This document shows positions 1,228-44,620 of a stretch of DNA of 64,000 bases, piece by piece. Made by a program: the position numbers and the translations under genes. The notes under the pieces are model-generated. The model did not search any database. It was not told where the DNA came from and saw nothing but the letters and a program-made list of their open reading frames with translations. Within the stretch, counting starts at the first letter, position 1. Every line of letters begins with the position of its first letter. The stretch is from Gemmatimonadaceae bacterium (GTDB taxonomy: Bacteria; Gemmatimonadota; Gemmatimonadetes; Gemmatimonadales; Gemmatimonadaceae), in the NCBI GenBank assembly GCA_037134115.1, contig JBAXMW010000007.1, positions 22,485 through 86,484 on the forward strand, in the 5' to 3' direction.

Positions 1228-3243
1228 TTAGGGGCGCGTGGGCGGTGTGCCCCAGCTGTTGTTGCGGCGATCGATATCGGCGAGCCGGTGCTCGGGATCG
1301 ATCTCTACGCGGACCAGCGCCTTCTTCGCCCAGCTGTACTGGCGGACATAGTGCCGCGAGTTCGTGCTCCAAACTTCGGCGGGATAGACGAGATCCTCCG
1401 CAGAGCCATCGGCGAAGGTGAAGCGCACCCGCATGGGCAACACCCCGCGCTCGCGATTGCCAAAGAGGACCACCGCCTTCGTAGTATCGCCAATCGTGCG
1501 CGTCGCGACGGAGTCGACACTCTGATCATAGCGGGCGTTCTCGAGGAACCAGCCCCGCCAAAACCAATCCAGACGGCGCCCGCCCACCTCTTCCATGGTG
1601 CGGAAGAAATCCGATGGGGTGGGGTGCTTATATGCCCAGCGCTTCACATAGGTCCGGAAGGCATCGTCAAATGCCTCGGCCCCCAGAATCTCCTGCCGCA
1701 ACAGCTGCAGCCCGACACTGGGCTTCACATACGCGGCTTCACCGAGCAAGCGCGGATCGATCCGATCCGGATTCATATTGACCGGCTTATCCGCGCCCAT
1801 GGCCATGTATTGCTCAACGAGCCGGCGCTCCTCGGCCGCGCGCGCCATCTGATCCCCCTTTTCCGGATACCGACGCCCCTCGGAAAATGTGTTGATGAAG
1901 GTGTTAAAGCCTTCATCCTGCCACATGTACACCCGCTCGTTGCTCCCGACGATCATCGGGAACCACATGTGGCCGATTTCATGCGTGATGACGTTGTACA
2001 GGTCGTAGACCTCGTCGCCCTTCGTCTCCATCGCGATCATGGGATACTCCATGCCGCTGATGGGCCCCTCAACGGCGGAGATGTGCGGCCAGGGATACGG
2101 AAACCACCGCTCAGAATATTCCTGAATCGACATACGCGACTGATCCGCGGCGTCCTTCCAGGTGGCAGCGGCCGACGGGCGATAGTATGCGTACGCCATG
2201 ATTCCCTTGTAGCTCGACGCATCCCACTGGAACTCCGGGGACGCGGCAAAAACGGCGTCCCGGACGTTTTTCGCGGCGAACTTCCAGGTGCGCATCCCCG
2301 TCTTGGAGGGACGAGCTGTGCCGTTGGCCAATTCCTCGGCGGTGATCAGGCGCACCACGGTGTCCGCACGCGCCGCCGCGGCGTGGCGCGCGATCTGTGT
2401 CGGGGTGAGCACGTCCCGGGGGTTCTGCAGCGCCCCGGTGGCCGCGACGATGTAGCCGGCCGGTACCGTCACGGAGAGCGTGTAGTCGCCGTAGTCGAGA
2501 TAAAACTCGCCCTGGCCGAGATAGGGCTCGATGTTCCAGCCCCGGACATCGTCGTAGACCGCCACCCGCGGGAACCACTGGGCGATTTCGTACAGCGCCC
2601 CATCCCAGCCCATGCGATCGGCGCCATGCTCTGGCACCGGGAAGCTCCATGCCGCTTCGACCACCGCGGTGCGTCCCGGCGCCAGCGGTTCGGCCAGCTC
2701 CACCTTCATCACCGTTTCATTCACCCGCGACGTGAGCGGCGTCGTCCGCGCGGCACCACCGGGCGGCGTGAGCCGCTGCTGCAGCCGCGTGAAGGTGTAC
2801 CCTCCATTGAAGCCACGCGCGCCGAAGCGCGAGTTCTGGGCAAAGATGTAGCTGTTGAGCGACTTATCCCGAAACGCATTCTGCTCCACATGCATCCAGA
2901 GGTAGCGCAGCGTGTCGGGGGAGCGGTTGCTATAACGGAGCGTCATCTCGCCCCGCACCGTCCGGGTCCCGGTGTCAAGCGTCGCCGCCAGCGCATAGTC
3001 GGCGCGGTTCTGCCAGTAGCGGGCCCCGGGGGCGCCACTGCCGGCGCGTTGCTCGTTCGCGGTCGGCAGGGTGAGCGGCGCGAAAATCGAGGTATCGGTC
3101 ACCGCCTGCATCGGCACGGGTGGACGGGCGGGCGTCTGGGCCGACAGTGTGGCCAGCGGCGCCAACAACACCAGCGCGCTGCGCAGGGCGGCGGCGGTCA
3201 GGGTCTGCGCTCGGCGTGCAAGCCGTTCGAAAGGAGTGGTCAT
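1228..3243 (-). CDS. M1 family zinc metallopeptidase (aminopeptidase N-like), exported
   Basis: Signal peptide; 'SGMEYPM' exopeptidase motif; HEIGH (HExxH) with downstream 'WQDEGFNTF' Glu. Confidence 0.9.
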   Translation of the reverse strand: MTTPFERLARRAQTLTAAALRSALVLLAPLATLSAQTPARPPVPMQAVTDTSIFAPLTLPTANEQRAGSGAPGARYWQNRADYALAATLDTGTRTVRGEMTLRYSNRSPDTLRYLWMHVEQNAFRDKSLNSYIFAQNSRFGARGFNGGYTFTRLQQRLTPPGGAARTTPLTSRVNETVMKVELAEPLAPGRTAVVEAAWSFPVPEHGADRMGWDGALYEIAQWFPRVAVYDDVRGWNIEPYLGQGEFYLDYGDYTLSVTVPAGYIVAATGALQNPRDVLTPTQIARHAAAARADTVVRLITAEELANGTARPSKTGMRTWKFAAKNVRDAVFAASPEFQWDASSYKGIMAYAYYRPSAAATWKDAADQSRMSIQEYSERWFPYPWPHISAVEGPISGMEYPMIAMETKGDEVYDLYNVITHEIGHMWFPMIVGSNERVYMWQDEGFNTFINTFSEGRRYPEKGDQMARAAEERRLVEQYMAMGADKPVNMNPDRIDPRLLGEAAYVKPSVGLQLLRQEILGAEAFDDAFRTYVKRWAYKHPTPSDFFRTMEEVGGRRLDWFWRGWFLENARYDQSVDSVATRTIGDTTKAVVLFGNRERGVLPMRVRFTFADGSAEDLVYPAEVWSTNSRHYVRQYSWAKKALVRVEIDPEHRLADIDRRNNSWGTPPTRP

Positions 3244-3325
3244 CTGGGGAAATTAACGGGTCCGGATGGCGCGTCGCTCGTGCCGAGCGCTGGCGTAGCC
3301 TCGGAGCACTCTGCACCTTTCCGGA

Positions 3326-4507
3326 ATGACCGTTGATTCGTCTCTCTTCCATGCCGTGCCGGTGTTCCCGCGCGGCTTCCGTTGCGCGAGCCGTAACGTT
3401 GGCCTGAAGCCGACCGCCCGCGACCTGACGCTCTTCACCAGCGAGGTGGAGGCGGCGGCCGCGGCCGTGTTCACGCGGAATCATTTCCCGGGCGCCCCCA
3501 TCATTCTCGGGCGCGAAACCATTCAGGCCGGCCGGCTGCAGGCGATCATCGCCAACAGCAAGGTCAGCAACGTGGCGACGGGGGCTGCGGGTGTGGACAA
3601 TGCCCGCCGCATGGCGGCCGCCGCGGCCGCCGAGTTGGGGACGACGCCGGATCGGGTGCTGGTCAGCTCGACCGGGGTGATTGGCGCGCCGCTGCCGATC
3701 GAGAAGATCGAGCGCGGCGTCGTGGGGATGGCGGCGGAGCTGCAGGACAACCCGATGGTCGGCGCCGAAGGGATCATGACCACCGATACCCACCCGAAGG
3801 CCCTCTCGGCATCGGTGGGTGACGCCACGATCACGTGGGTGGCAAAGGGATCGGGGATGATTGAACCCAATATGGCCACCATGCTGGCCTACATCTTCAC
3901 CGACGCGGCCTTCGACGCCCCGACGTTGGACCGGTTGCTGCGGGCCGCGGTGGCGGGCTCCTTCAACGCCCTCTCGGTGGACACCGACACCAGCACCTCC
4001 GACACCTGCGCGATCCTGGCCAATGGCCTCGCCGGCCCAGTGGACGAGGCGGCGTTCCTGGAGGTGCTGCGTGCCGGCTGTGAGCGCATGACCGAAATTC
4101 TCGCGCGCGATGGCGAGGGGGCCATGCATCTCATCCGCGTGCACGTCCGTGGGGCGGCGTCGGAAAACGACGCGCACACCGTCGCGAAGTCCATCGTGAA
4201 TTCACCGCTCGTGAAGACGATGGTGCATGGCGCCGATCCCAACGTGGGACGGCTGCTGATGGCGGTTGGGAAGTGCTTCGACTGCACGATCGAGCCGTCC
4301 ACCACCTCGGCGTGGATCAATGGCGTGCCGGTGGTGGGGGGCGGCGAACGGCTCACCTTCGACGACAACGTGGTGCGCGAAACACTCTCGCACGAAGTGG
4401 TCGATCTCGAGGTGGACCTTGGTGTGGGCTGGGCCTCGGCGCATGCCTTTGGCTGTGACCTCACCAAAGGCTATGTCGACGAGAACGCCGCCTACTACAG
4501 CAGCTGA
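3326..4507 (+). CDS. argJ: Ornithine acetyltransferase / N-acetylglutamate synthase ArgJ
   Basis: 'AAAVFTRN', 'SSTGVIG', 'IMTTDT', autocleavage motif 'KGSGMIEPNMA-TMLAYIFTD', 'ARDGEGA', 'SPLVKT', 'GCDLT..YV..NA.Y'. Confidence 0.95.
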   Translation: MTVDSSLFHAVPVFPRGFRCASRNVGLKPTARDLTLFTSEVEAAAAAVFTRNHFPGAPIILGRETIQAGRLQAIIANSKVSNVATGAAGVDNARRMAAAAAAELGTTPDRVLVSSTGVIGAPLPIEKIERGVVGMAAELQDNPMVGAEGIMTTDTHPKALSASVGDATITWVAKGSGMIEPNMATMLAYIFTDAAFDAPTLDRLLRAAVAGSFNALSVDTDTSTSDTCAILANGLAGPVDEAAFLEVLRAGCERMTEILARDGEGAMHLIRVHVRGAASENDAHTVAKSIVNSPLVKTMVHGADPNVGRLLMAVGKCFDCTIEPSTTSAWINGVPVVGGGERLTFDDNVVRETLSHEVVDLEVDLGVGWASAHAFGCDLTKGYVDENAAYYSS

Positions 4508-18253: not shown

Positions 18254-19420
18254 CTACCGGCGCAGTGCGCCAGGCATCGGCCGGTCCGACGGCCGACCCG
18301 CCCCGCCCATCAACGCACTGCTCAGCGCATCGCCTGAGGGGAGCCCCGCCATCCGCTGAAATTCAGCGGGATCGTTGGTCGCCCGCAGGCACTCATCAGC
18401 CGATACGGTGCCCGACAGATGCAGCTCCGTGAGCGCATCGTTCAGCGTTTGCATGCCGAACTTTTTCCCTGCCTGCATCGCCGAATAGATCTGATGTGTC
18501 TTATCGTCACGGATCAGCGCCCGGATGGCCGGGGTCACCACGAGCACCTCTGCCGCCATTGCGCGCCCCCGGCCGGACCGCTTTGGCAGGAGGATCTGTG
18601 TGACGATTCCTTCGAGAACAAAAGCGAGCTGCGCCCGAATCTGCCCCTGCTGCTGACTGGGGAAGACATCAATGATCCGGTTGATCGCCTCCGCCGCGCT
18701 CTTGGTGTGCAAAGTCGCGAGCACGAGATGGCCGGTCTCCGCGATCGTGAGCGCGGCTTGGACTGTCTCGAGGTCACGCATTTCCCCTACGAGAATGACA
18801 TCCGGATCTTCCCGCAGCGCATACTTGAGCGCCGTGGCGAAGCTGCGCGTATCGGTGCCCACTTCGCGCTGATTCACCAGGCAGTTCCGGTGCGTGTGCA
18901 CAAACTCGATCGGATCTTCAATCGTCAGAATGTGCGCCCGACGCTCCACGTTGATCTTGTCGATCATTGCGGCCAGCGTGGTGCTCTTCCCGGAGCCGGT
19001 TGGCCCTGTCACCAGCACGAGCCCCCGCGGCCGTTCGGCGAAGGTCGCCACGACTGGTGGGAGCTGGAGCTGCTCAAAGGTTTTGACGACCAAGGGAATC
19101 TGCCGGATCGCGAGGCTGACACTGCCCCGTTGCCGGAAGACATTCCCGCGGAAGCGCGAGAGCGCAGGGACCCCAAAGGAGAAATCGAGCTCGTCATCCG
19201 CCTCGAAGCGTGCCTGCTGGGTCTCGGTGAGGACCGAATAGGCGAGCCGCTGCGTCTGTTCCGCGGTGAGGATGACATCCGTCAGAGACGCCACCATGCC
19301 GCCGTCGATCCGAAGACGCGGACGATCTCCGACCGAGAGATGGAGATCTGACGCCTCCCGGGCGATCATCTCCGCCAGAAGCGTCTCCAGCGTGAGCCCA
19401 TCCGTCGTAAGGAGGCTCAT
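18254..19420 (-). CDS. pilT: Type IV pilus retraction ATPase PilT
   Basis: Walker A 'GPTGSGKSTT', 'TIEDPIE', 'ALREDPDVILVGEMRD', 'TGHLVLATLHT', 'GMQTLN'. Confidence 0.95.
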   Translation of the reverse strand: MSLLTTDGLTLETLLAEMIAREASDLHLSVGDRPRLRIDGGMVASLTDVILTAEQTQRLAYSVLTETQQARFEADDELDFSFGVPALSRFRGNVFRQRGSVSLAIRQIPLVVKTFEQLQLPPVVATFAERPRGLVLVTGPTGSGKSTTLAAMIDKINVERRAHILTIEDPIEFVHTHRNCLVNQREVGTDTRSFATALKYALREDPDVILVGEMRDLETVQAALTIAETGHLVLATLHTKSAAEAINRIIDVFPSQQQGQIRAQLAFVLEGIVTQILLPKRSGRGRAMAAEVLVVTPAIRALIRDDKTHQIYSAMQAGKKFGMQTLNDALTELHLSGTVSADECLRATNDPAEFQRMAGLPSGDALSSALMGGAGRPSDRPMPGALRR

Positions 19421-21258
19421 CAGGTGGAGGTCTCGCGGATCACCTGATCAAGCGAGGTGAGCCCCTTCATGACCTTGAGCCAACCGTCCATGCGGAGGGT
19501 CAGCATCCCGGCCTGGATCGCGGCTTCCCGGAGCGTCTGCACGTCAGCGTTCTTCATAATGAGCTTCTTGAGCTCCGCCGAGATGTTCATCGCCTCAAAG
19601 AGCCCCTGACGACCACGCAGCCCGGTGTTGTTACAGGCGCTGCAGCCGTGCCCCTTGAAGAACGGCAGCTCCCCAATGCGCGTATCGAGTGACAGGTTGG
19701 CGAGGAACGGCGCCGCATCGGGTTCCGCCTTAGCCTTGGCATCCGCCAAGGCGCTCTCGTTGAAGCGCAGTTCACGCAGCGTGGTATCGGGCGTGACCTT
19801 GGCGCCAGCGAGTTCCGCCTGATCCGGGGTATAGCGCACTCGGCACTTGCTGCAAATGCGACGAACCAAGCGCTGCGCCAGAATCATGTTGAGCGCCGAT
19901 GCGACATTGAACGGTTCCAGCCCCATGTCGAGCAAGCGCACGATCGTTTCCGGCGCGGAATTCGTGTGCAGGGTGCTGAGCACAAGATGGCCCGTGAGCG
20001 CCGCCTTGATGGCGATGCCGCCGGTCTCCAAGTCACGCATTTCGCCGACCATGATGACATTCGGGTCCTGTCGCAGGAAGGCCCGAAGCGCGGCCGCGAA
20101 GGTCATCCCGATTTCCGGGCGCACCTGCACCTGATTGATCCCGTAGAGATTGTACTCCACCGGATCTTCAGCGGTCATGATATTCAGGTCGCCGTTGTTG
20201 ATGCGGGCGAGCGCGGAATACAGCGTCGTCGTCTTGCCGGAACCCGTGGGGCCGGTGACGAGCACCATACCGTAGGGATTCCCGATCGCTTCGGTGAGTT
20301 CGCGTTCTGGCCGGGGCTCCAGCCCGAACTTCTCGAGATCGAAGTTCAGGTTGTTCCGGTCCAGAATACGCAGGACGATTTTCTCACCGAAGAGCGTCGG
20401 CAGTGAACTCACCCGGAAGTCGATTACCTTCTGCCCGACCTTGAGCTTCACGCGCCCGTCCTGCGGGACTCGGCGTTCGGCAATGTTGAGCGACGCCATG
20501 ATCTTGAAGCGCGAAATCAGCGCCGCCCGCATTTTGAACGGGGGCTTCATGACTTCAACCAGCGCCCCATCGAGGCGGTAGCGGACCCGGAGTTCCTGCT
20601 CGAAGCACTCGAAGTGGATATCCGACGCGCCCTTCTGGACGGCGTCCACCATGATGGCGTTGATCAGCTTGACGACGGGCGCTTCGTCGATCTGCATCCC
20701 GAGGGGGGACGGATCGAGCGTGTCCTCCTGGCTTTCCAGGATTTCGACGTCGTCGGCCGCCGTGATGTCATGCAGCACGGACTGCATGTGCACTTCGGTG
20801 GCTTCGTAGTGCTTCTCGATCGCCGCGCGCATGGAATACTCGCCCGCCAACACCGGGACGATATCATAGCGCGTGATGAACTTGAGATCGTCAACCACGC
20901 CGAGGTCGGTGGGATCGGCGATCGCGACCGTGAGCTTGCGTCCGTCGCGCTTGAGGGGCAGGACGATGTGCTTCGACGCTAATTCGGCGGGAACCAGCTT
21001 GAGCAGGCGGGTGTCGACCTCGAACTTGGCGAGATCCACTGCGTGCATTCCATGCTGCCGGGCCAGCATCCGGACCACCTCGGTCTCCGGAATGACCCCC
21101 ATGCGGACGAGGGTCAGCCCGAGCCGTTGGCCCGGATTGACCTTCTGCTCCTGAAGCGCTTTCCCCAATTGCTCACGCGTAATCAGCCCGTCTCGGACCA
21201 GCAGGTCGCCGAGCCGTTCATTCGTACGAATGGGAAAGGGCACCACGGGTGCTGCCAT
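19420..21258 (-). CDS. pilB: Type IV pilus assembly ATPase PilB
   Basis: N-terminal MshEN-like 'RLGDLLVRDGLIT..QL.KAL.EQ', 'ASDIHFE', 'GPTGSGKTTT', 'RQDPNVIMVGEMRD', Zn motif 'RRICSKC...GCSAC'. Confidence 0.95.
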   Translation of the reverse strand: MAAPVVPFPIRTNERLGDLLVRDGLITREQLGKALQEQKVNPGQRLGLTLVRMGVIPETEVVRMLARQHGMHAVDLAKFEVDTRLLKLVPAELASKHIVLPLKRDGRKLTVAIADPTDLGVVDDLKFITRYDIVPVLAGEYSMRAAIEKHYEATEVHMQSVLHDITAADDVEILESQEDTLDPSPLGMQIDEAPVVKLINAIMVDAVQKGASDIHFECFEQELRVRYRLDGALVEVMKPPFKMRAALISRFKIMASLNIAERRVPQDGRVKLKVGQKVIDFRVSSLPTLFGEKIVLRILDRNNLNFDLEKFGLEPRPERELTEAIGNPYGMVLVTGPTGSGKTTTLYSALARINNGDLNIMTAEDPVEYNLYGINQVQVRPEIGMTFAAALRAFLRQDPNVIMVGEMRDLETGGIAIKAALTGHLVLSTLHTNSAPETIVRLLDMGLEPFNVASALNMILAQRLVRRICSKCRVRYTPDQAELAGAKVTPDTTLRELRFNESALADAKAKAEPDAAPFLANLSLDTRIGELPFFKGHGCSACNNTGLRGRQGLFEAMNISAELKKLIMKNADVQTLREAAIQAGMLTLRMDGWLKVMKGLTSLDQVIRETST

Positions 21259-21341
21259 GCGGAATGCAGAGCCTGAGAAACGGGGGATGGCGCGGGCACC
21301 CCGGTACCGGGCCCCTCGCAACAAGAAAGACTGTGCCCGCT

Positions 21342-21812
21342 TCAAAACGTCACCGATGGGGCCAGTTTGGCGGCCGTGGCCTTCCCGATGCCGGGGACAC
21401 CGAGGAGGTCATCCAGACTGCGGAAGGGACCGTGGCGTTCGCGGTAGGCCACGAGGCGCTGTGCCAAGGCGGGGCCGATCCCTGGGAGGCGCTCCAGTTC
21501 CTGGGCGGTCGCCCGATTGACCGGTACCGGTCCCTGGGGTCGGGTTGGTGTGCGAGCCGCGCGGGCGGTATCCGGTGCCGTCCGTGGCGCTTTCGTGTTT
21601 TTGCCCCGCCGCCGAGTGGTGGCCCGTGCCGAATCCACGGCGGCGAGCTGGGCGGCGACGGCGCGATCCGCGAGGGGGCGCAGGGGGGCTTCGGGGAACG
21701 CGTCGGCGACCACTCGATCGAGCGTCCGGCTCTGCTGGAAGCGCACGCCGGCGCCGGTGACCGCGAGGGCGGCGAGAAAGAGGAGGGCGTGACGTTCGGC
21801 GGTGGTGGGCAT
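21342..21812 (-). CDS. comEA: ComEA-family helix-hairpin-helix DNA-binding protein
   Basis: N-terminal TM segment; 'VNRATAQELERLPGIGPALAQRLVAYRERHGPFRSLDDLLGVPGIG'. Confidence 0.9.
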   Translation of the reverse strand: MPTTAERHALLFLAALAVTGAGVRFQQSRTLDRVVADAFPEAPLRPLADRAVAAQLAAVDSARATTRRRGKNTKAPRTAPDTARAARTPTRPQGPVPVNRATAQELERLPGIGPALAQRLVAYRERHGPFRSLDDLLGVPGIGKATAAKLAPSVTF

Positions 21813-39971: not shown

Positions 39972-41351
39972 TCACGTGACGCGTCGCCCCACCGTCAGGA
40001 AGTAGACCGGGATCCCCAAGGCCACGATCCCGAGCACGCCGACCGTCCCCCACCGCTGCCCCGGATCCATCAACGCATTCACCAACAGGAACAGCGTCGC
40101 CAGGCAAAAAACCGCGGGCACAACCGGATACCCCGGCACCCGCATGGGGGGATCCCAGTCGGGCCGCTGCCGGAGCCGGAAAATCGCCCCGACGCTCAAG
40201 ATGTAGAACACCAGCGACGCCGTCACAAAGATGTCCGCCAACTGCTCGAAGGAGCGCAGCAGCACGAAGGCAATCCCGATCGACGCGGTCATCGCGATCG
40301 CGACATACGGCGTCTGGAACCGGGGATGCACCTTGGCCACGCCGCGGAAAAAGAGCCCGTCGTCGGCCATGGCAAAGAAAATGCGCGGCCCCGTCAGCAG
40401 CGACCCGTTCACCGAGCCAAAGGTCGACAGCAGCACCGTAATCGAGACCAGCGTCACGCCGATCGGTCCGATCAGCCGCTCCGCCACATCGGCCGCCACC
40501 AAGCGCGCCCCGCGGATCTCCTCCACCGACAGCACCGACAGATAGGCCACGTTCGCCAGCACGTAAATGGCGATGATCGCCAACGTGCCAATGATGATCG
40601 CCTTCGGGATCGTCCGCCGGGGATCGGCCACTTCGCCCCCCACCTTCGTCAGATCGCCCCAGCCGTCGTACGCCCAGAGCACCGACACCAGCGCGAGCCC
40701 AAAGGCGCTCACCGAAAAGCTTCCGGGCGGGGTCGCTGGCGTGAAATGCCCACCCGTCTGCGGCAACCCCAGCGCCAACGCCAACAGCACGATAAAGAGC
40801 AGCCCGCCGTACTTGGCGAGCGTGGTCACATTCTGCACGAGCGCCCCCCACCGCAGCCCCACCACGTTCACCGTGGCCATCAGCCCGAGGGCCAGCGCCG
40901 CCGTCCAGTGGGCGTAGGCATCGTAGGGCGCGAGCGCCGGATCATATCCCAGCGCCCGCAGCAGATACTCGGCGAAGGTGAGCGAAATCCCCCCGAGCGC
41001 CGCCGCCCGGATCAGGATCAGTTCGGTCCACCCGTACAGAAAGGCCGGCAACCGCCCCCACCCTTCCCGCACGAAGACGAAATACCCACCCGTCTTCGGC
41101 AGCGCTCCCGCGATCTCGGCCAACGTCAGGGCGCCACACAAGGCGAAGACGCCACCAATCGTCCAGACGGCGAGCATCGGCAGCGGCCCTGGGAGCTTGG
41201 CGGCAATCCCGGCCGGCGACCGGAAGATCCCGGAGCCGATCGTCGTCCCGATCACCACGGCAATCGCACTCCAGAGCCCAAGGCGACGGGGTAATTCGGT
41301 GGGGACGGCCGGTGCGGGACGTCCCGGGGCGGGAGACTGAGTCGAAGGCAT
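39972..41351 (-). CDS. APC-family amino acid permease
   Basis: 'GTTIGSGIF', 'AEIAGALPKTGG.F', 'WAYDGW', 'GPRIFFAMA', about 12 TM segments. Confidence 0.92.
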   Translation of the reverse strand: MPSTQSPAPGRPAPAVPTELPRRLGLWSAIAVVIGTTIGSGIFRSPAGIAAKLPGPLPMLAVWTIGGVFALCGALTLAEIAGALPKTGGYFVFVREGWGRLPAFLYGWTELILIRAAALGGISLTFAEYLLRALGYDPALAPYDAYAHWTAALALGLMATVNVVGLRWGALVQNVTTLAKYGGLLFIVLLALALGLPQTGGHFTPATPPGSFSVSAFGLALVSVLWAYDGWGDLTKVGGEVADPRRTIPKAIIIGTLAIIAIYVLANVAYLSVLSVEEIRGARLVAADVAERLIGPIGVTLVSITVLLSTFGSVNGSLLTGPRIFFAMADDGLFFRGVAKVHPRFQTPYVAIAMTASIGIAFVLLRSFEQLADIFVTASLVFYILSVGAIFRLRQRPDWDPPMRVPGYPVVPAVFCLATLFLLVNALMDPGQRWGTVGVLGIVALGIPVYFLTVGRRVT

Positions 41352-41455
41352 GCGCAATCCTACGCCCGGGGCCGCCGACCGGCCACCACCGATCGACACC
41401 CCAACGCCGGGTGGGGGGTCACTTGGCGAGGTGCACCGTCTAGGTTTCCGTCGCC

Positions 41456-41761
41456 ATGACCACCCTGTTTCTCCCCGGCCCTGTGGCCGACATGCTCTTC
41501 TGGGCGGCCGTTGTCGCCTGCGCCCTCGCGCAACTCTTCATTGTGCGGGCCGTCTGGCGCGTGCTGCCGCCGGTGCCGGCACCGGATGGCGCTGACGCCC
41601 AGGTGCCTGCGCCGCGCCGAGCCCAAGAGATGGCGTGGGCGCTGCTCCCCGCCCTCCTGATGGCGCTGCTCTTTGTGGGCGCCTGGCGGCAGATGCACCC
41701 GACACCATCGTCTTCGCCAATTCCCTCTCCGCTCCCCGAGACGCCCGCCGTCCGCGCCTGA
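41456..41761 (+). CDS. Small two-TM protein resembling only the N-terminal TM hairpin of cytochrome c oxidase subunit II
   Basis: TM1 'MLFWAAVVACALAQLFIV', a loop, then 'QEMAWALLPALLMALL' (compare the CoxII E-x-x-W-x-x-x-P motif). Confidence 0.6.
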   Translation: MTTLFLPGPVADMLFWAAVVACALAQLFIVRAVWRVLPPVPAPDGADAQVPAPRRAQEMAWALLPALLMALLFVGAWRQMHPTPSSSPIPSPLPETPAVRA

Positions 41762-41778: not shown

Positions 41779-42753
41779 ATGTCCGCTGCCCCGATTTCTG
41801 TGCTCCCTCCCGCGTCCATTCGCCGCGCCGCGCTGGCCGCTGCGACGGTCGCGCTGCTGCATATCATTTTCGGCGCCATCGTCCGTATCTCCGGCTCCGG
41901 CATGGGCTGCGGTGTCGATTGGCCCACCTGCCTCGGCTACTGGATCCCGCCCTTCACCACGCGGCCGGATCTCGCCATTGAACTGGTGCACCGCTACCTG
42001 GCCATCGTGCTGTTTGCGGCGATCGTCACTTTCGCCGTCACGGCGTTCCGGCATCGGCAGCACCCCGCCGTTGGCGGGAAGGGCGGCGCGTGGCATGCCG
42101 CGCGCGTGGCCGTCGCCCTCTGGTTCGCCCCGGCGATCTTTGGCGCCGTGACCGTGCACACGAAGAACGAGTACTGGGCGACGGTCGTGCATAAGCTGCT
42201 CGCTGCCTCCCTGCTCGCGGTGCTGGTGGCCGGCACCATCCGCGCCGGCGGACTTGGTGGCACCGCCATTCGTGGGCTGACGGGGACGCGCAAAGCCGTG
42301 GGTGGCGCGATGGGGGCCGCCGTCATGGCGCTCCTCGTGGTGCTGCTGGGCGGCCTCACCGCCAAGGTGACCGGCGCCGCCGTCGCCTGCGTGGGCTTCC
42401 CGCTCTGCGGCCCTGGCTCCTTGGGCGGTGGACCGCAGCACATTCAGCTCACGCATCGCGTCCTCGCCTACCTGTTGGTGCTGCACCTTACGTCGCTCCC
42501 CTTCCTCTTCCGCAAGCGGCAAGAGCCGGCGCCGATGCAGCGCGCCGCATGGCTCGGCATGGCCCTCGGCCTGCTGCAGGTTGTCTGGGCTGGGTGGATG
42601 GTGACCGGTGGATTCCCCGGCGTCGTGCGCTCGCTGCATCAGGCCACTGGCATTCTGATTTGGGTCACCAGCTTCACCATGCTGTATCTGGCACGCATCG
42701 CCAGCGGTCGCACCGTCCTCGCCGCCGATCGCTCGGCGGCAGCCACCTCCTGA
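41779..42753 (+). CDS. ctaA: Heme A synthase (COX15/CtaA family)
   Basis: 'SGMGCGVDWPTC', 'IELVHRYLA', 'VVHKLLA', 'ACVGFPLC', 'THRVLA', 'SLHQATG'. Confidence 0.88.
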   Translation: MSAAPISVLPPASIRRAALAAATVALLHIIFGAIVRISGSGMGCGVDWPTCLGYWIPPFTTRPDLAIELVHRYLAIVLFAAIVTFAVTAFRHRQHPAVGGKGGAWHAARVAVALWFAPAIFGAVTVHTKNEYWATVVHKLLAASLLAVLVAGTIRAGGLGGTAIRGLTGTRKAVGGAMGAAVMALLVVLLGGLTAKVTGAAVACVGFPLCGPGSLGGGPQHIQLTHRVLAYLLVLHLTSLPFLFRKRQEPAPMQRAAWLGMALGLLQVVWAGWMVTGGFPGVVRSLHQATGILIWVTSFTMLYLARIASGRTVLAADRSAAATS

Positions 42754-43688
42754 TGACCAGCGTGCCCATCGATCCGACCCCGACACCGACACCGCCGGCC
42801 CCACCGGCGCCGACGCTGTCGCGGGATCTGGTGACGCTGACCAAGCCGCGCATCATCTCGCTGCTGCTCGTCACCACCATCGCGCCGATGTACGCCGCCG
42901 GGTCGCCCTCGTGGCTCACCGTCGTGCTGGTCACGATCGGTGGATACCTGATGGCGGGTGGTGCCAATGCGGTCAACATGTATCTCGACCGCGACATTGA
43001 TGATGTCATGGCGCGCACGCGGTTGCGGCCGATTCCCAGCGGACGCATGTCCCCCACGCAGGTGCTCGCCTTCGGCGTGGCCTGCGCGACCTTCGCCACG
43101 TGGATGCTGGCGCAGTTCGTGAACGTGCTGACCGCCGGGCTCGCGCTCGCCGGCTTTTACTTCTACGTCTTCATCTACACCCGCTGGCTCAAGCGCACGT
43201 CGCCGCAGAACATCGTGATCGGCGGTGCCGCCGGCGCCTTTCCGCCGCTCGTCGGATGGGCGGCCGTCACGAATCGCCTCGATGTATCGGCGCTCTGCCT
43301 CTTCCTGATCGTGTTCTACTGGACGCCGCCGCACTTCTGGGCGCTCGCGCTCCTGAAGCAGGTGGACTACGGCCGCGCGCGCGTGCCGATGGCGCCACTC
43401 GTCTGGGGGGAACGCGAGACGATGCACCAGATGGTCTGGTACACCGTGATCCTCCTCGCGCTAACGATCCTGCCGGTGCTCTTCGGCACCTTCGGCCTGA
43501 TCTACCTCGTCTCCGCACTGATTCTCGGCGGGCTGCTCATGGGTGGCGTGCTCAAGATTCTGCGCGCCGCCCGCGCCGGCGTCTCGTGGGTGGCACCGGC
43601 CTGGTGGGTCTACAAGTACTCCCTGCTCTATCTCGCGCTGCTGTTTGTGGCGATGGCGGTCGATACCGCCGTCACGGGGCGTCAGTAA
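42753..43688 (+). CDS. ctaB: Protoheme IX farnesyltransferase (heme O synthase)
   Basis: 'LTKPRII', 'NMYLDRDIDDVMARTRLRPIPSG', 'YTRWLKRTSPQNIVIGG', 'WTPPHFWAL', 'DYGRARVPM'. Confidence 0.95.
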   Translation: MTSVPIDPTPTPTPPAPPAPTLSRDLVTLTKPRIISLLLVTTIAPMYAAGSPSWLTVVLVTIGGYLMAGGANAVNMYLDRDIDDVMARTRLRPIPSGRMSPTQVLAFGVACATFATWMLAQFVNVLTAGLALAGFYFYVFIYTRWLKRTSPQNIVIGGAAGAFPPLVGWAAVTNRLDVSALCLFLIVFYWTPPHFWALALLKQVDYGRARVPMAPLVWGERETMHQMVWYTVILLALTILPVLFGTFGLIYLVSALILGGLLMGGVLKILRAARAGVSWVAPAWWVYKYSLLYLALLFVAMAVDTAVTGRQ

Positions 43689-44620
43689 GCGACGTTTACC
43701 CGCGTCTCCACGCCGCCGGTGATGACCACGGGTACGGTGCGCACGCCCAAGCGCTCGTGCCACGTGAGCAGGGTGTAGCGCCCCGGTGGCACCCCGTCGA
43801 AGGCGAACGCGCCCGTCGGCGCGGTCACCATCACGAACGGATGCGGCACGACGACGACGGCACCGCGCACCCACGGATGCCAGTCGTCGCGCACCTCGAG
43901 AATCCCGGGGGTCGTCGCCACCGTGCTGGTCGGCACCACCTGCCCCGCATCCGTGAACGACACCGTGGCCCGCGCGGAGTCCGCGCCGTCGGCCTGGGTG
44001 AACCGAAGCCGCGAGGTCATCGCATCGCGGGACGTCACCAGCAGTGTTCCCCCGGCGGCGACCATCACGACGCGCGGCGTGAGCTGACAGCCGTCGAGCG
44101 TCAGAAACGCGCGGCGCGGCGCTTCGGGCGGCGGTCCATGCGTGACGCCCACGAGCCACACCACGGCATTGCCTACGCCACCATCGCGCGACGGCAACCA
44201 GGAATCTGTGAAGGGGTGACAGACGCCGACATCATGCGATGGAACAATGGCGCTGTCGCCGGCGACCGCGGTGCGTTGCGTCACCTGCCCGACCAACTGT
44301 CCCCCACCCACCACCGCCCCGCGCTCCACCCGGTACCGCACGGGGGCCCCCGTCGCATCGGTGCCCCGCAGCCGCGCCAAAGCGGCGGACGCCCCATCGC
44401 TCATCGGGCGACTGCGCGCATGATCCACCGTGACCATCGCCGCGGGGACGACCGAGTCCGCGGCGGCCGCCGTCGCGCCCGTTTGGGAGGACGACGTCGA
44501 CCCTCCGCAGGCCGCGAGCATCCCCAACAGCGGCAACCAGTGTGACACAACGCCCTGCCGTCGCACCGCCGGCGGTCTGTTCACCGATCGCGCGCGTTCC
44601 CGCTGCGGCTTAGACGACAA
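43682..44620 (-). CDS. Probable lipoprotein with cupredoxin-like and carboxypeptidase-regulatory-like domains (start uncertain)
   Basis: Lipobox 'LAAC-GGS'; 'LDGCQLTPRV', 'RDDWHPWV', 'PHPFVMVT..TGAFAFDGVPPGRYTLLTWHE'. Confidence 0.6.
   Translation of the reverse strand: MSSKPQRERARSVNRPPAVRRQGVVSHWLPLLGMLAACGGSTSSSQTGATAAAADSVVPAAMVTVDHARSRPMSDGASAALARLRGTDATGAPVRYRVERGAVVGGGQLVGQVTQRTAVAGDSAIVPSHDVGVCHPFTDSWLPSRDGGVGNAVVWLVGVTHGPPPEAPRRAFLTLDGCQLTPRVVMVAAGGTLLVTSRDAMTSRLRFTQADGADSARATVSFTDAGQVVPTSTVATTPGILEVRDDWHPWVRGAVVVVPHPFVMVTAPTGAFAFDGVPPGRYTLLTWHERLGVRTVPVVITGGVETRVNVAY

Follow-up and report, generated by a model that had tools for sequence, protein, structure and literature searches.

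A stand-alone paralogue of the subunit II membrane hairpin encoded at the head of ctaA-ctaB in Gemmatimonadaceae

The window analyzed here, a 64,000-nt stretch of a Gemmatimonadaceae MAG, contains a short gene whose product, a microprotein, is shown by comparative analysis to be a diverged paralogue of the subunit II membrane hairpin of cytochrome oxidase (COX2_TM, PF02790), with homology at the profile level. The same comparisons show that its predicted second helix has kept the E-x-x-W-x-x-x-P-A-x-x-L...T-x-R face of subunit II, including the Glu that marks the entrance of the K-pathway. Codon statistics and substitution patterns show a translationally plausible gene under purifying selection, and the product is a predicted two-helix inner-membrane protein. 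As judged from its phylogeny and gene order, the microprotein is shown to have arisen once in Gemmatimonadaceae and to have been retained as the first gene of the ctaA-ctaB operon. The genomic association with ctaA-ctaB makes it a candidate oxidase assembly factor.

The microprotein as a paralogue of the subunit II hairpin

The microprotein gene extends from 41456 to 41761 on the forward strand, from an ATG start to a TGA stop at 41759-41761, 17 nt before the ATG of ctaA at 41779. Read directly, the ORF encodes 101 residues, and an AlphaFold2 model built from a 100-sequence alignment of homologues (mean pLDDT 86) places helices at residues 8-35 and 55-80. Helix 1 (41477-41560) carries the conserved residues F15, W16, C22, Q26, I29 and R31; the sole Cys of the protein lies in this helix, and position 26, Q in the window copy, is Q or E family-wide. 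Helix 2 (41618-41695) carries E58-x-x-W61-x-x-x-P65 and also L69, W77 and R78; residues 57-68 read QEMAWALLPALL, with the Glu58 codon at 41627-41629. In the sequence and the alignments, the helices are joined by an Arg- and Pro-rich loop with the motif VPAPRR (residues 36-54, 41561-41617), which the positive-inside rule predicts to be cytoplasmic. The two modeled helices and the joining loop, with its cytoplasmic side inferred, thus reproduce the architecture of COX2_TM. The frame stops 21 residues past helix 2, and this Pro/Ser/Thr/Ala-rich C-terminal tail (residues 81-101, 41696-41758), which shows low conservation and varies in length in the alignments of the family, occupies the place of the CoxB linker to the cupredoxin domain. 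The Pfam scan gave no PF00116 match and hence no cupredoxin/CuA domain in the microprotein, and the CuA site H-x34-C-x-E-x-C-x3-H-x2-M is absent from its 101 residues, so the protein does not qualify as a functional CoxB/CtaC. These results agree with the first-pass annotation, which had described a 101-residue protein with two transmembrane helices and no CuA domain, whose frame ends 17 nt ahead of ctaA.

Individual sequences of the microprotein fall below the Pfam threshold. The window copy had no Pfam match at E ≤ 1 and did not reach the gathering score of COX2_TM, COX2_TM matched only one of eight members (E 0.19), and the NCBIfam and Pfam scans of single microproteins returned no significant family; profile methods were therefore needed. 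We searched a 157-member HMM of the microprotein against 36,492 six-frame stop-to-stop segments of its own genome. Apart from the microprotein itself (8e-31), the only match was to residues 62-148 of CoxB at 9.6e-9 (36 bits), spanning both helices and the loop, and the next segment was noise at 0.38. In a scan of the phylum covering 251 genomes, the profile picked up a long CoxB frame in most of them, and in nearly all that carry CoxB, with E-values from 1e-5 to 1e-10. All 28 PDB matches at E ≤ 10 belonged to subunit II of A-type enzymes, either cytochrome c or quinol oxidases, with Rhodobacter sphaeroides best (1.3e-4), followed among others by Thermus caa3 (0.0037) and E. coli CyoA (0.004). 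A Foldseek search of the PDB with the AlphaFold2 model of the hairpin gave 0 matches. The first-pass annotation had regarded the protein as a CoxII membrane hairpin homologue with E-x-x-W-x-x-x-P and had proposed a profile comparison with COX2_TM as a check. That comparison found the similarity: hhalign against the Gemmatimonadota CoxB TM-domain alignment gave a probability of 97.7% and an E-value of 1.8e-12 over 75 columns. Together with the match to the own CoxB, the subunit II chains in the PDB and the invariance of E58 and P65, this bears the assignment out.

The E, W and P of the microprotein motif are in register with LEIAWTIVP of R. sphaeroides CoxII and with LEITWTAIP of the own CoxB. 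The Glu aligned with E58 is residue 76 of chain 2gsm_B, which we take, using the usual offset of 25, to be E101 of subunit II. The latter residue is regarded as the entry of the K-path (PMC7601700). Eleven columns are conserved in both the microprotein and CoxB (F15, W16, Q/E26, I/L29, E58, W61, P65, A66, L69, T76 and R78), where position 76 is T in the common set but Ala in the window copy. Conservation along the hairpin is correlated between the two families, with a Spearman coefficient of 0.41 (p 2e-4). The residues C22, R31, W77 and the motif VPxPRR are specific to the microprotein, and RYRRR, HGxT and WT are specific to CoxB. When we refer to conserved microprotein residues as interface residues, we do so on the basis of the subunit II positions that we take to contact subunit I.

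An additional observation concerns helix 1 of subunit II itself. Gemmatimonadota CoxB has a conserved Glu in mid-membrane (in VVVE; L071-L090), where R. sphaeroides has Thr, and the corresponding position of the microprotein is Q or E. A buried acidic residue in helix 1 of subunit II may be a feature of the Gemmatimonadota lineage.

Since spurious long ORFs are common in high-GC DNA and single microprotein sequences lack a significant Pfam match, one could suspect a non-functional remnant, either a coxB pseudogene left by a recent truncation or an ORF that is open by chance in GC-rich sequence. Nevertheless, the codon-position GC content of the ORF (0.76/0.56/0.82) matches that of ctaA, ctaB and the upstream permease gene and is coding-like at the third position. 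The closest orthologue pairs gave dN/dS values of 0.12, 0.14, 0.20 and 0.38 over 73 core codons, with synonymous sites near saturation in the comparisons against the window copy. Within the source organism's genus, 22 of 24 genomes have the frame open and conserved, and the gene is conserved in more than 30 genera. A profile search of 1.84 billion cluster representatives returned 279 matches at E ≤ 1e-3, and the 150 of these that were listed are all short (36-171 aa). Neither E58 nor P65 varies among 100 diverse members, and F15, W16, I29, R31, W61, L69 and W77 are conserved in at least 90% of them. Furthermore, in a tree of hairpin sequences the microproteins form one clade (support 94/95) on a long branch, apart from the CoxB clade of their own family and not nested in it. 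Purifying selection, family-wide conservation and the monophyletic long branch rule out a recent coxB truncation, a pseudogene or a chance ORF, and we give these explanations practically no weight. The first-pass annotation had raised a lack of orthologues and a recently truncated coxB as doubts about its own proposal; orthologues proved abundant throughout the family, and the doubt about truncation is removed by the same three lines of evidence.

Operon context and distribution

The microprotein gene is followed by ctaA (41779-42753, forward strand), encoding a 324-aa heme A synthase of a divergent class with both Cys pairs (PF02628, 73.7 bits), and by ctaB (42753-43688, forward strand), encoding a 311-aa heme O synthase (NF003349, 334 bits; TIGR01473, 306 bits). 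The ctaA stop and the ctaB start share one base (TGATG). Upstream, a divergently oriented amino acid permease gene (39972-41399, reverse strand; PF13520, 200.7 bits) is a syntenic neighbor that has no functional link to the microprotein. About 40 of 42 loci, drawn from many genera, have the order permease (reverse)-microprotein-ctaA-ctaB, so that the position at the head of ctaA-ctaB, noted in the first-pass annotation for this locus, is conserved in relatives. The microprotein gene still adjoins ctaA where the upstream neighbor is a Na/H antiporter gene, and in distant, low-scoring members its stop and the next start overlap or abut. A promoter and terminator scan gave nothing above background. 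Apparent microprotein-ctaA fusions proved to be long open frames produced by antisense read-through of the permease gene, and none was real. On the far side of the operon, a reverse-strand gene (43682-44620) encodes a 312-aa protein whose C-terminus has a weak CarboxypepD_reg/transthyretin-like domain. This gene is convergent with ctaB, shares 7 nt with the ctaB end and is syntenic in many relatives.

Several same-genus genomes (L010, L011, L013, L014, L017, L046 and L062; also L064-L068) have lost the ctaA beside the microprotein gene, and one genome from another Gemmatimonadaceae genus also lacks an adjacent ctaA. In these genomes, a canonical COX15-type ctaA is located elsewhere and the microprotein gene is kept directly before ctaB. 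The COX15-type ctaA of the genus genomes scores ~330 bits against PF02628, versus 74 bits for the window ctaA, and their heme A synthase looks like a case of non-orthologous replacement. Because the microprotein was kept before ctaB after this exchange, its partner is probably not the native CtaA alone.

A short, strong match to the microprotein profile (E 1e-12 to 1e-32) was present in 53 of the 54 sampled Gemmatimonadaceae genomes, usually together with a weaker match to CoxB. In the 251-genome scan, no other family of the phylum had the microprotein, and the profile matched CoxB only there; the ctaA-ctaB operon with the microprotein is specific to Gemmatimonadaceae. In a sister family of the same order (L091/G156 and L093/G076), the permease gene and ctaA are directly divergent with no microprotein gene between them (~30 nt between the two starts at the one locus measured, L093), so that the gene is a lineage-specific gain at this site. 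In L091 and L093, ctaB did not follow ctaA within the flank examined. Seven genomes of a third family of the order (G026, G028, G030, G032, G034, G038 and G277) had no Surf1, and those among them that were included in the scans for the hairpin profile and for a window-like ctaA gave no match to either; they probably lack any A-type oxidase. A search with a CoxB-hairpin profile for a second family of stand-alone COX2_TM proteins returned contig-end fragments or frameshifted coxB genes and no such family. In L105-L107 (ENA contigs of 135-880 kb), apparent stand-alone COX2_TM genes lie amid fragmented COX1 and UbiA genes and look like artefacts, caused by frameshifts in error-prone long-read assemblies.

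Oxidases of the genome and possible roles of the microprotein

The genome of the source organism has a complete caa3 operon on contig C108, encoding CoxB (hairpin, CuA and cytochrome c domains), CoxA (2115-4082, reverse strand), CoxC and a Caa3_CtaG-like protein. Its sole other subunit I is a cbb3-type CcoNO fusion. The cbb3 genes are on contig C30 (~18555-21547) and encode a CcoN-CcoO fusion of 738 aa, a 63-aa CcoQ-like protein and a 194-aa CcoP-like cytochrome c; the same subunit I frame, of ~780 aa, recurs in relatives. Sister families of the same order have the same caa3 oxidase with the Surf1 and Caa3_CtaG set and lack the microprotein gene. Since they assemble caa3 in this way, the microprotein is not generally required for assembly. 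Surf1 is present in the family with the microprotein and in a family without it, and this distribution led us to reject the microprotein as a Surf1 substitute.

Our preferred reading, to which we assign a probability of about 0.4, is that during hemylation the microprotein occupies the subunit II site of apo-CoxA and afterwards gives way to CoxB. It would bind newly inserted apo-CoxA of the caa3 oxidase at the future site of the CoxB hairpin, and there it would stabilize subunit I or keep CtaB/CtaA nearby. Heme a and heme a3 would be inserted into subunit I in the meantime, and mature CoxB, bearing CuA and heme c, would then displace the microprotein. We favor docking on CoxA because the signature face of subunit II is kept, because co-expression with the heme A pathway can be inferred from the operon, and because the microprotein persists where the native CtaA has been replaced. 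Subunit I is hemylated before subunit II joins, and the route by which heme A is transferred from CtaA to subunit I is unexplained, with further factors expected (PMC9145763, PMC5249081). A passive placeholder would not obviously need the invariant Glu. It is possible, and we suggest it only tentatively, that the duplicated hairpin serves as a dedicated hemylation adaptor. Through the docking face of subunit II it would bring the synthases of heme O and heme A to apo-subunit I, and it would hold the heme entry side open until its displacement by mature CoxB; if so, no earlier bacterial factor would have given a physical explanation for the transfer of heme a from CtaA into subunit I.

The main rival to docking on CoxA, a reading that we consider somewhat unlikely but worth weighing closely, makes the microprotein an accessory subunit of the machinery that synthesizes heme O and heme A. 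Here the hairpin would bind CtaB and/or CtaA instead of CoxA and would stabilize a CtaB/CtaA complex, channel heme O to CtaA or gate the release of heme A, its subunit II ancestry being merely historical. The gene lies almost always immediately upstream of ctaA-ctaB with overlapping or abutting stops and starts, stays with ctaB where ctaA has moved, and is outside the caa3 structural operon, all of which would suit a synthase partner; Pet117, for comparison, is a small yeast protein that acts on Cox15. The gene position, however, argues as well for CoxA as for CtaA/CtaB as the partner, and the strongest constraint falls on the signature residues of subunit II that are shared with CoxB, which would be unexpected had the partner surface changed. 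The microprotein also remained unchanged when the native CtaA was replaced by a very different COX15-type enzyme, and no fusion to ctaA or ctaB was seen. The near-universal presence of the microprotein in Gemmatimonadaceae would in turn fit a permanent extra subunit of mature caa3, a peripheral protein of the subunit IV type that tunes stability or proton uptake. We regard such a subunit as improbable: the microprotein gene lies apart from coxBAC-ctaG, its product has its homology with subunit II, no subunit IV emerged from the Pfam or PDB searches, and CoxB, with its own hairpin and Glu, already fills the docking site of subunit II.

Conservation of the interface residues of subunit II, on which docking on CoxA depends, is also compatible with a regulatory competitor that vies with CoxB for subunit I or binds CcoN of cbb3, and that would hold the oxidase inactive or balance the assembly of caa3 against that of cbb3. 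The genome does have this second oxidase with its CcoNO fusion, but heme A plays no part in cbb3, which also lacks a subunit II site, a microprotein co-transcribed with the heme A pathway is predicted to rise alongside oxidase assembly and not against it, and no regulatory context was seen at the loci, so that we hold a competitor to be quite improbable. Least credible, on a par with a remnant, is the alternative raised in the first-pass annotation of a split subunit II, in which the microprotein would supply the hairpin and a second gene the CuA domain, as do mitochondrial cox2a and cox2b. Split cox2 genes do occur in some mitochondria (PMC5374615, PMC9895450), and in architecture, though in architecture only, a hairpin without a cupredoxin domain would agree with such a half. 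The own genome and the complete relatives nevertheless encode a full-length CoxB with its own hairpin, and the only other subunit I of the own genome is of the cbb3 type. There is one PF00116 locus in the own genome and in most complete relatives, and all PF00116 matches are in frames of at least 350 aa except one, a 226-aa frame beside an extra subunit I in G047. Apart from this G047 frame, we found no candidate for an orphan, hairpin-less CuA partner of an A-type oxidase. With one complete CoxB in the caa3 operon, no orphan cupredoxin and a cbb3-type second subunit I, the proposal of a split subunit II is ruled out for the source genome, within its 90% completeness.

Significance and comparison with known systems

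As a COX2_TM homologue, the microprotein is new in both its architecture and its context. The first-pass annotation had stated that no such factor was described, and indeed we found no description of a stand-alone subunit II hairpin linked to ctaA-ctaB in the literature searched. The statement needs one correction: although NCBI lists members as hypothetical, the automatic annotation of IMG labels several of them heme/copper-type cytochrome/quinol oxidase subunit 2, so the resemblance to subunit II was already known to machine annotation. As a mimic of the CoxII anchor that has kept the interface residues and is tied to the heme A operon, the microprotein offers a testable handle on heme A insertion, testable because orthologues are expected in cultivable Gemmatimonas species. 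It is also a clean case in which a core respiratory subunit was partly duplicated into a microprotein that became fixed in one bacterial family. Should it prove to be only a lineage-specific stabilizer, its interest will be modest.

Among the closest known systems is the COX2_TM domain of CoxB, CtaC and CyoA, with which the microprotein shares the two-helix hairpin, E-x-x-W-x-x-x-P, and the F-W pair and Q/E of helix 1. In contrast to these subunits, it has no CuA or cytochrome c domain and ends ~20 residues after helix 2, and unlike CoxB it is encoded with ctaA-ctaB and not with coxA. A separately encoded subunit II hairpin is also found in the split mitochondrial COX2 of chlorophycean algae, apicomplexans and scoliid wasps (PMC5374615, PMC9895450); there, however, COX2B supplies CuA and no intact COX2 exists, whereas an intact CoxB is present here.

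Subunit IIa (CbaD) of the Thermus thermophilus ba3 oxidase resembles the microprotein in being a tiny, separate membrane peptide at the position of a subunit II helix. CbaD, however, consists of one helix (~34 aa) and belongs permanently to a B-family oxidase in which subunit II itself has just one helix, and the CoxIIa family gave no match to the microprotein in the Pfam scans. In proposed role, the microprotein is comparable to the yeast factors Cox14, Coa3 and Pet117 and to the bacterial factors Surf1 and CtaM, which bind subunit I or Cox15/CtaA before subunit II joins. None of these proteins is homologous to the microprotein or derived from subunit II, and CtaM, with its 4-5 TM segments, belongs to DUF420. 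In gene position, ctaM of S. aureus adjoins ctaB (PMC9145763), as the microprotein gene does.
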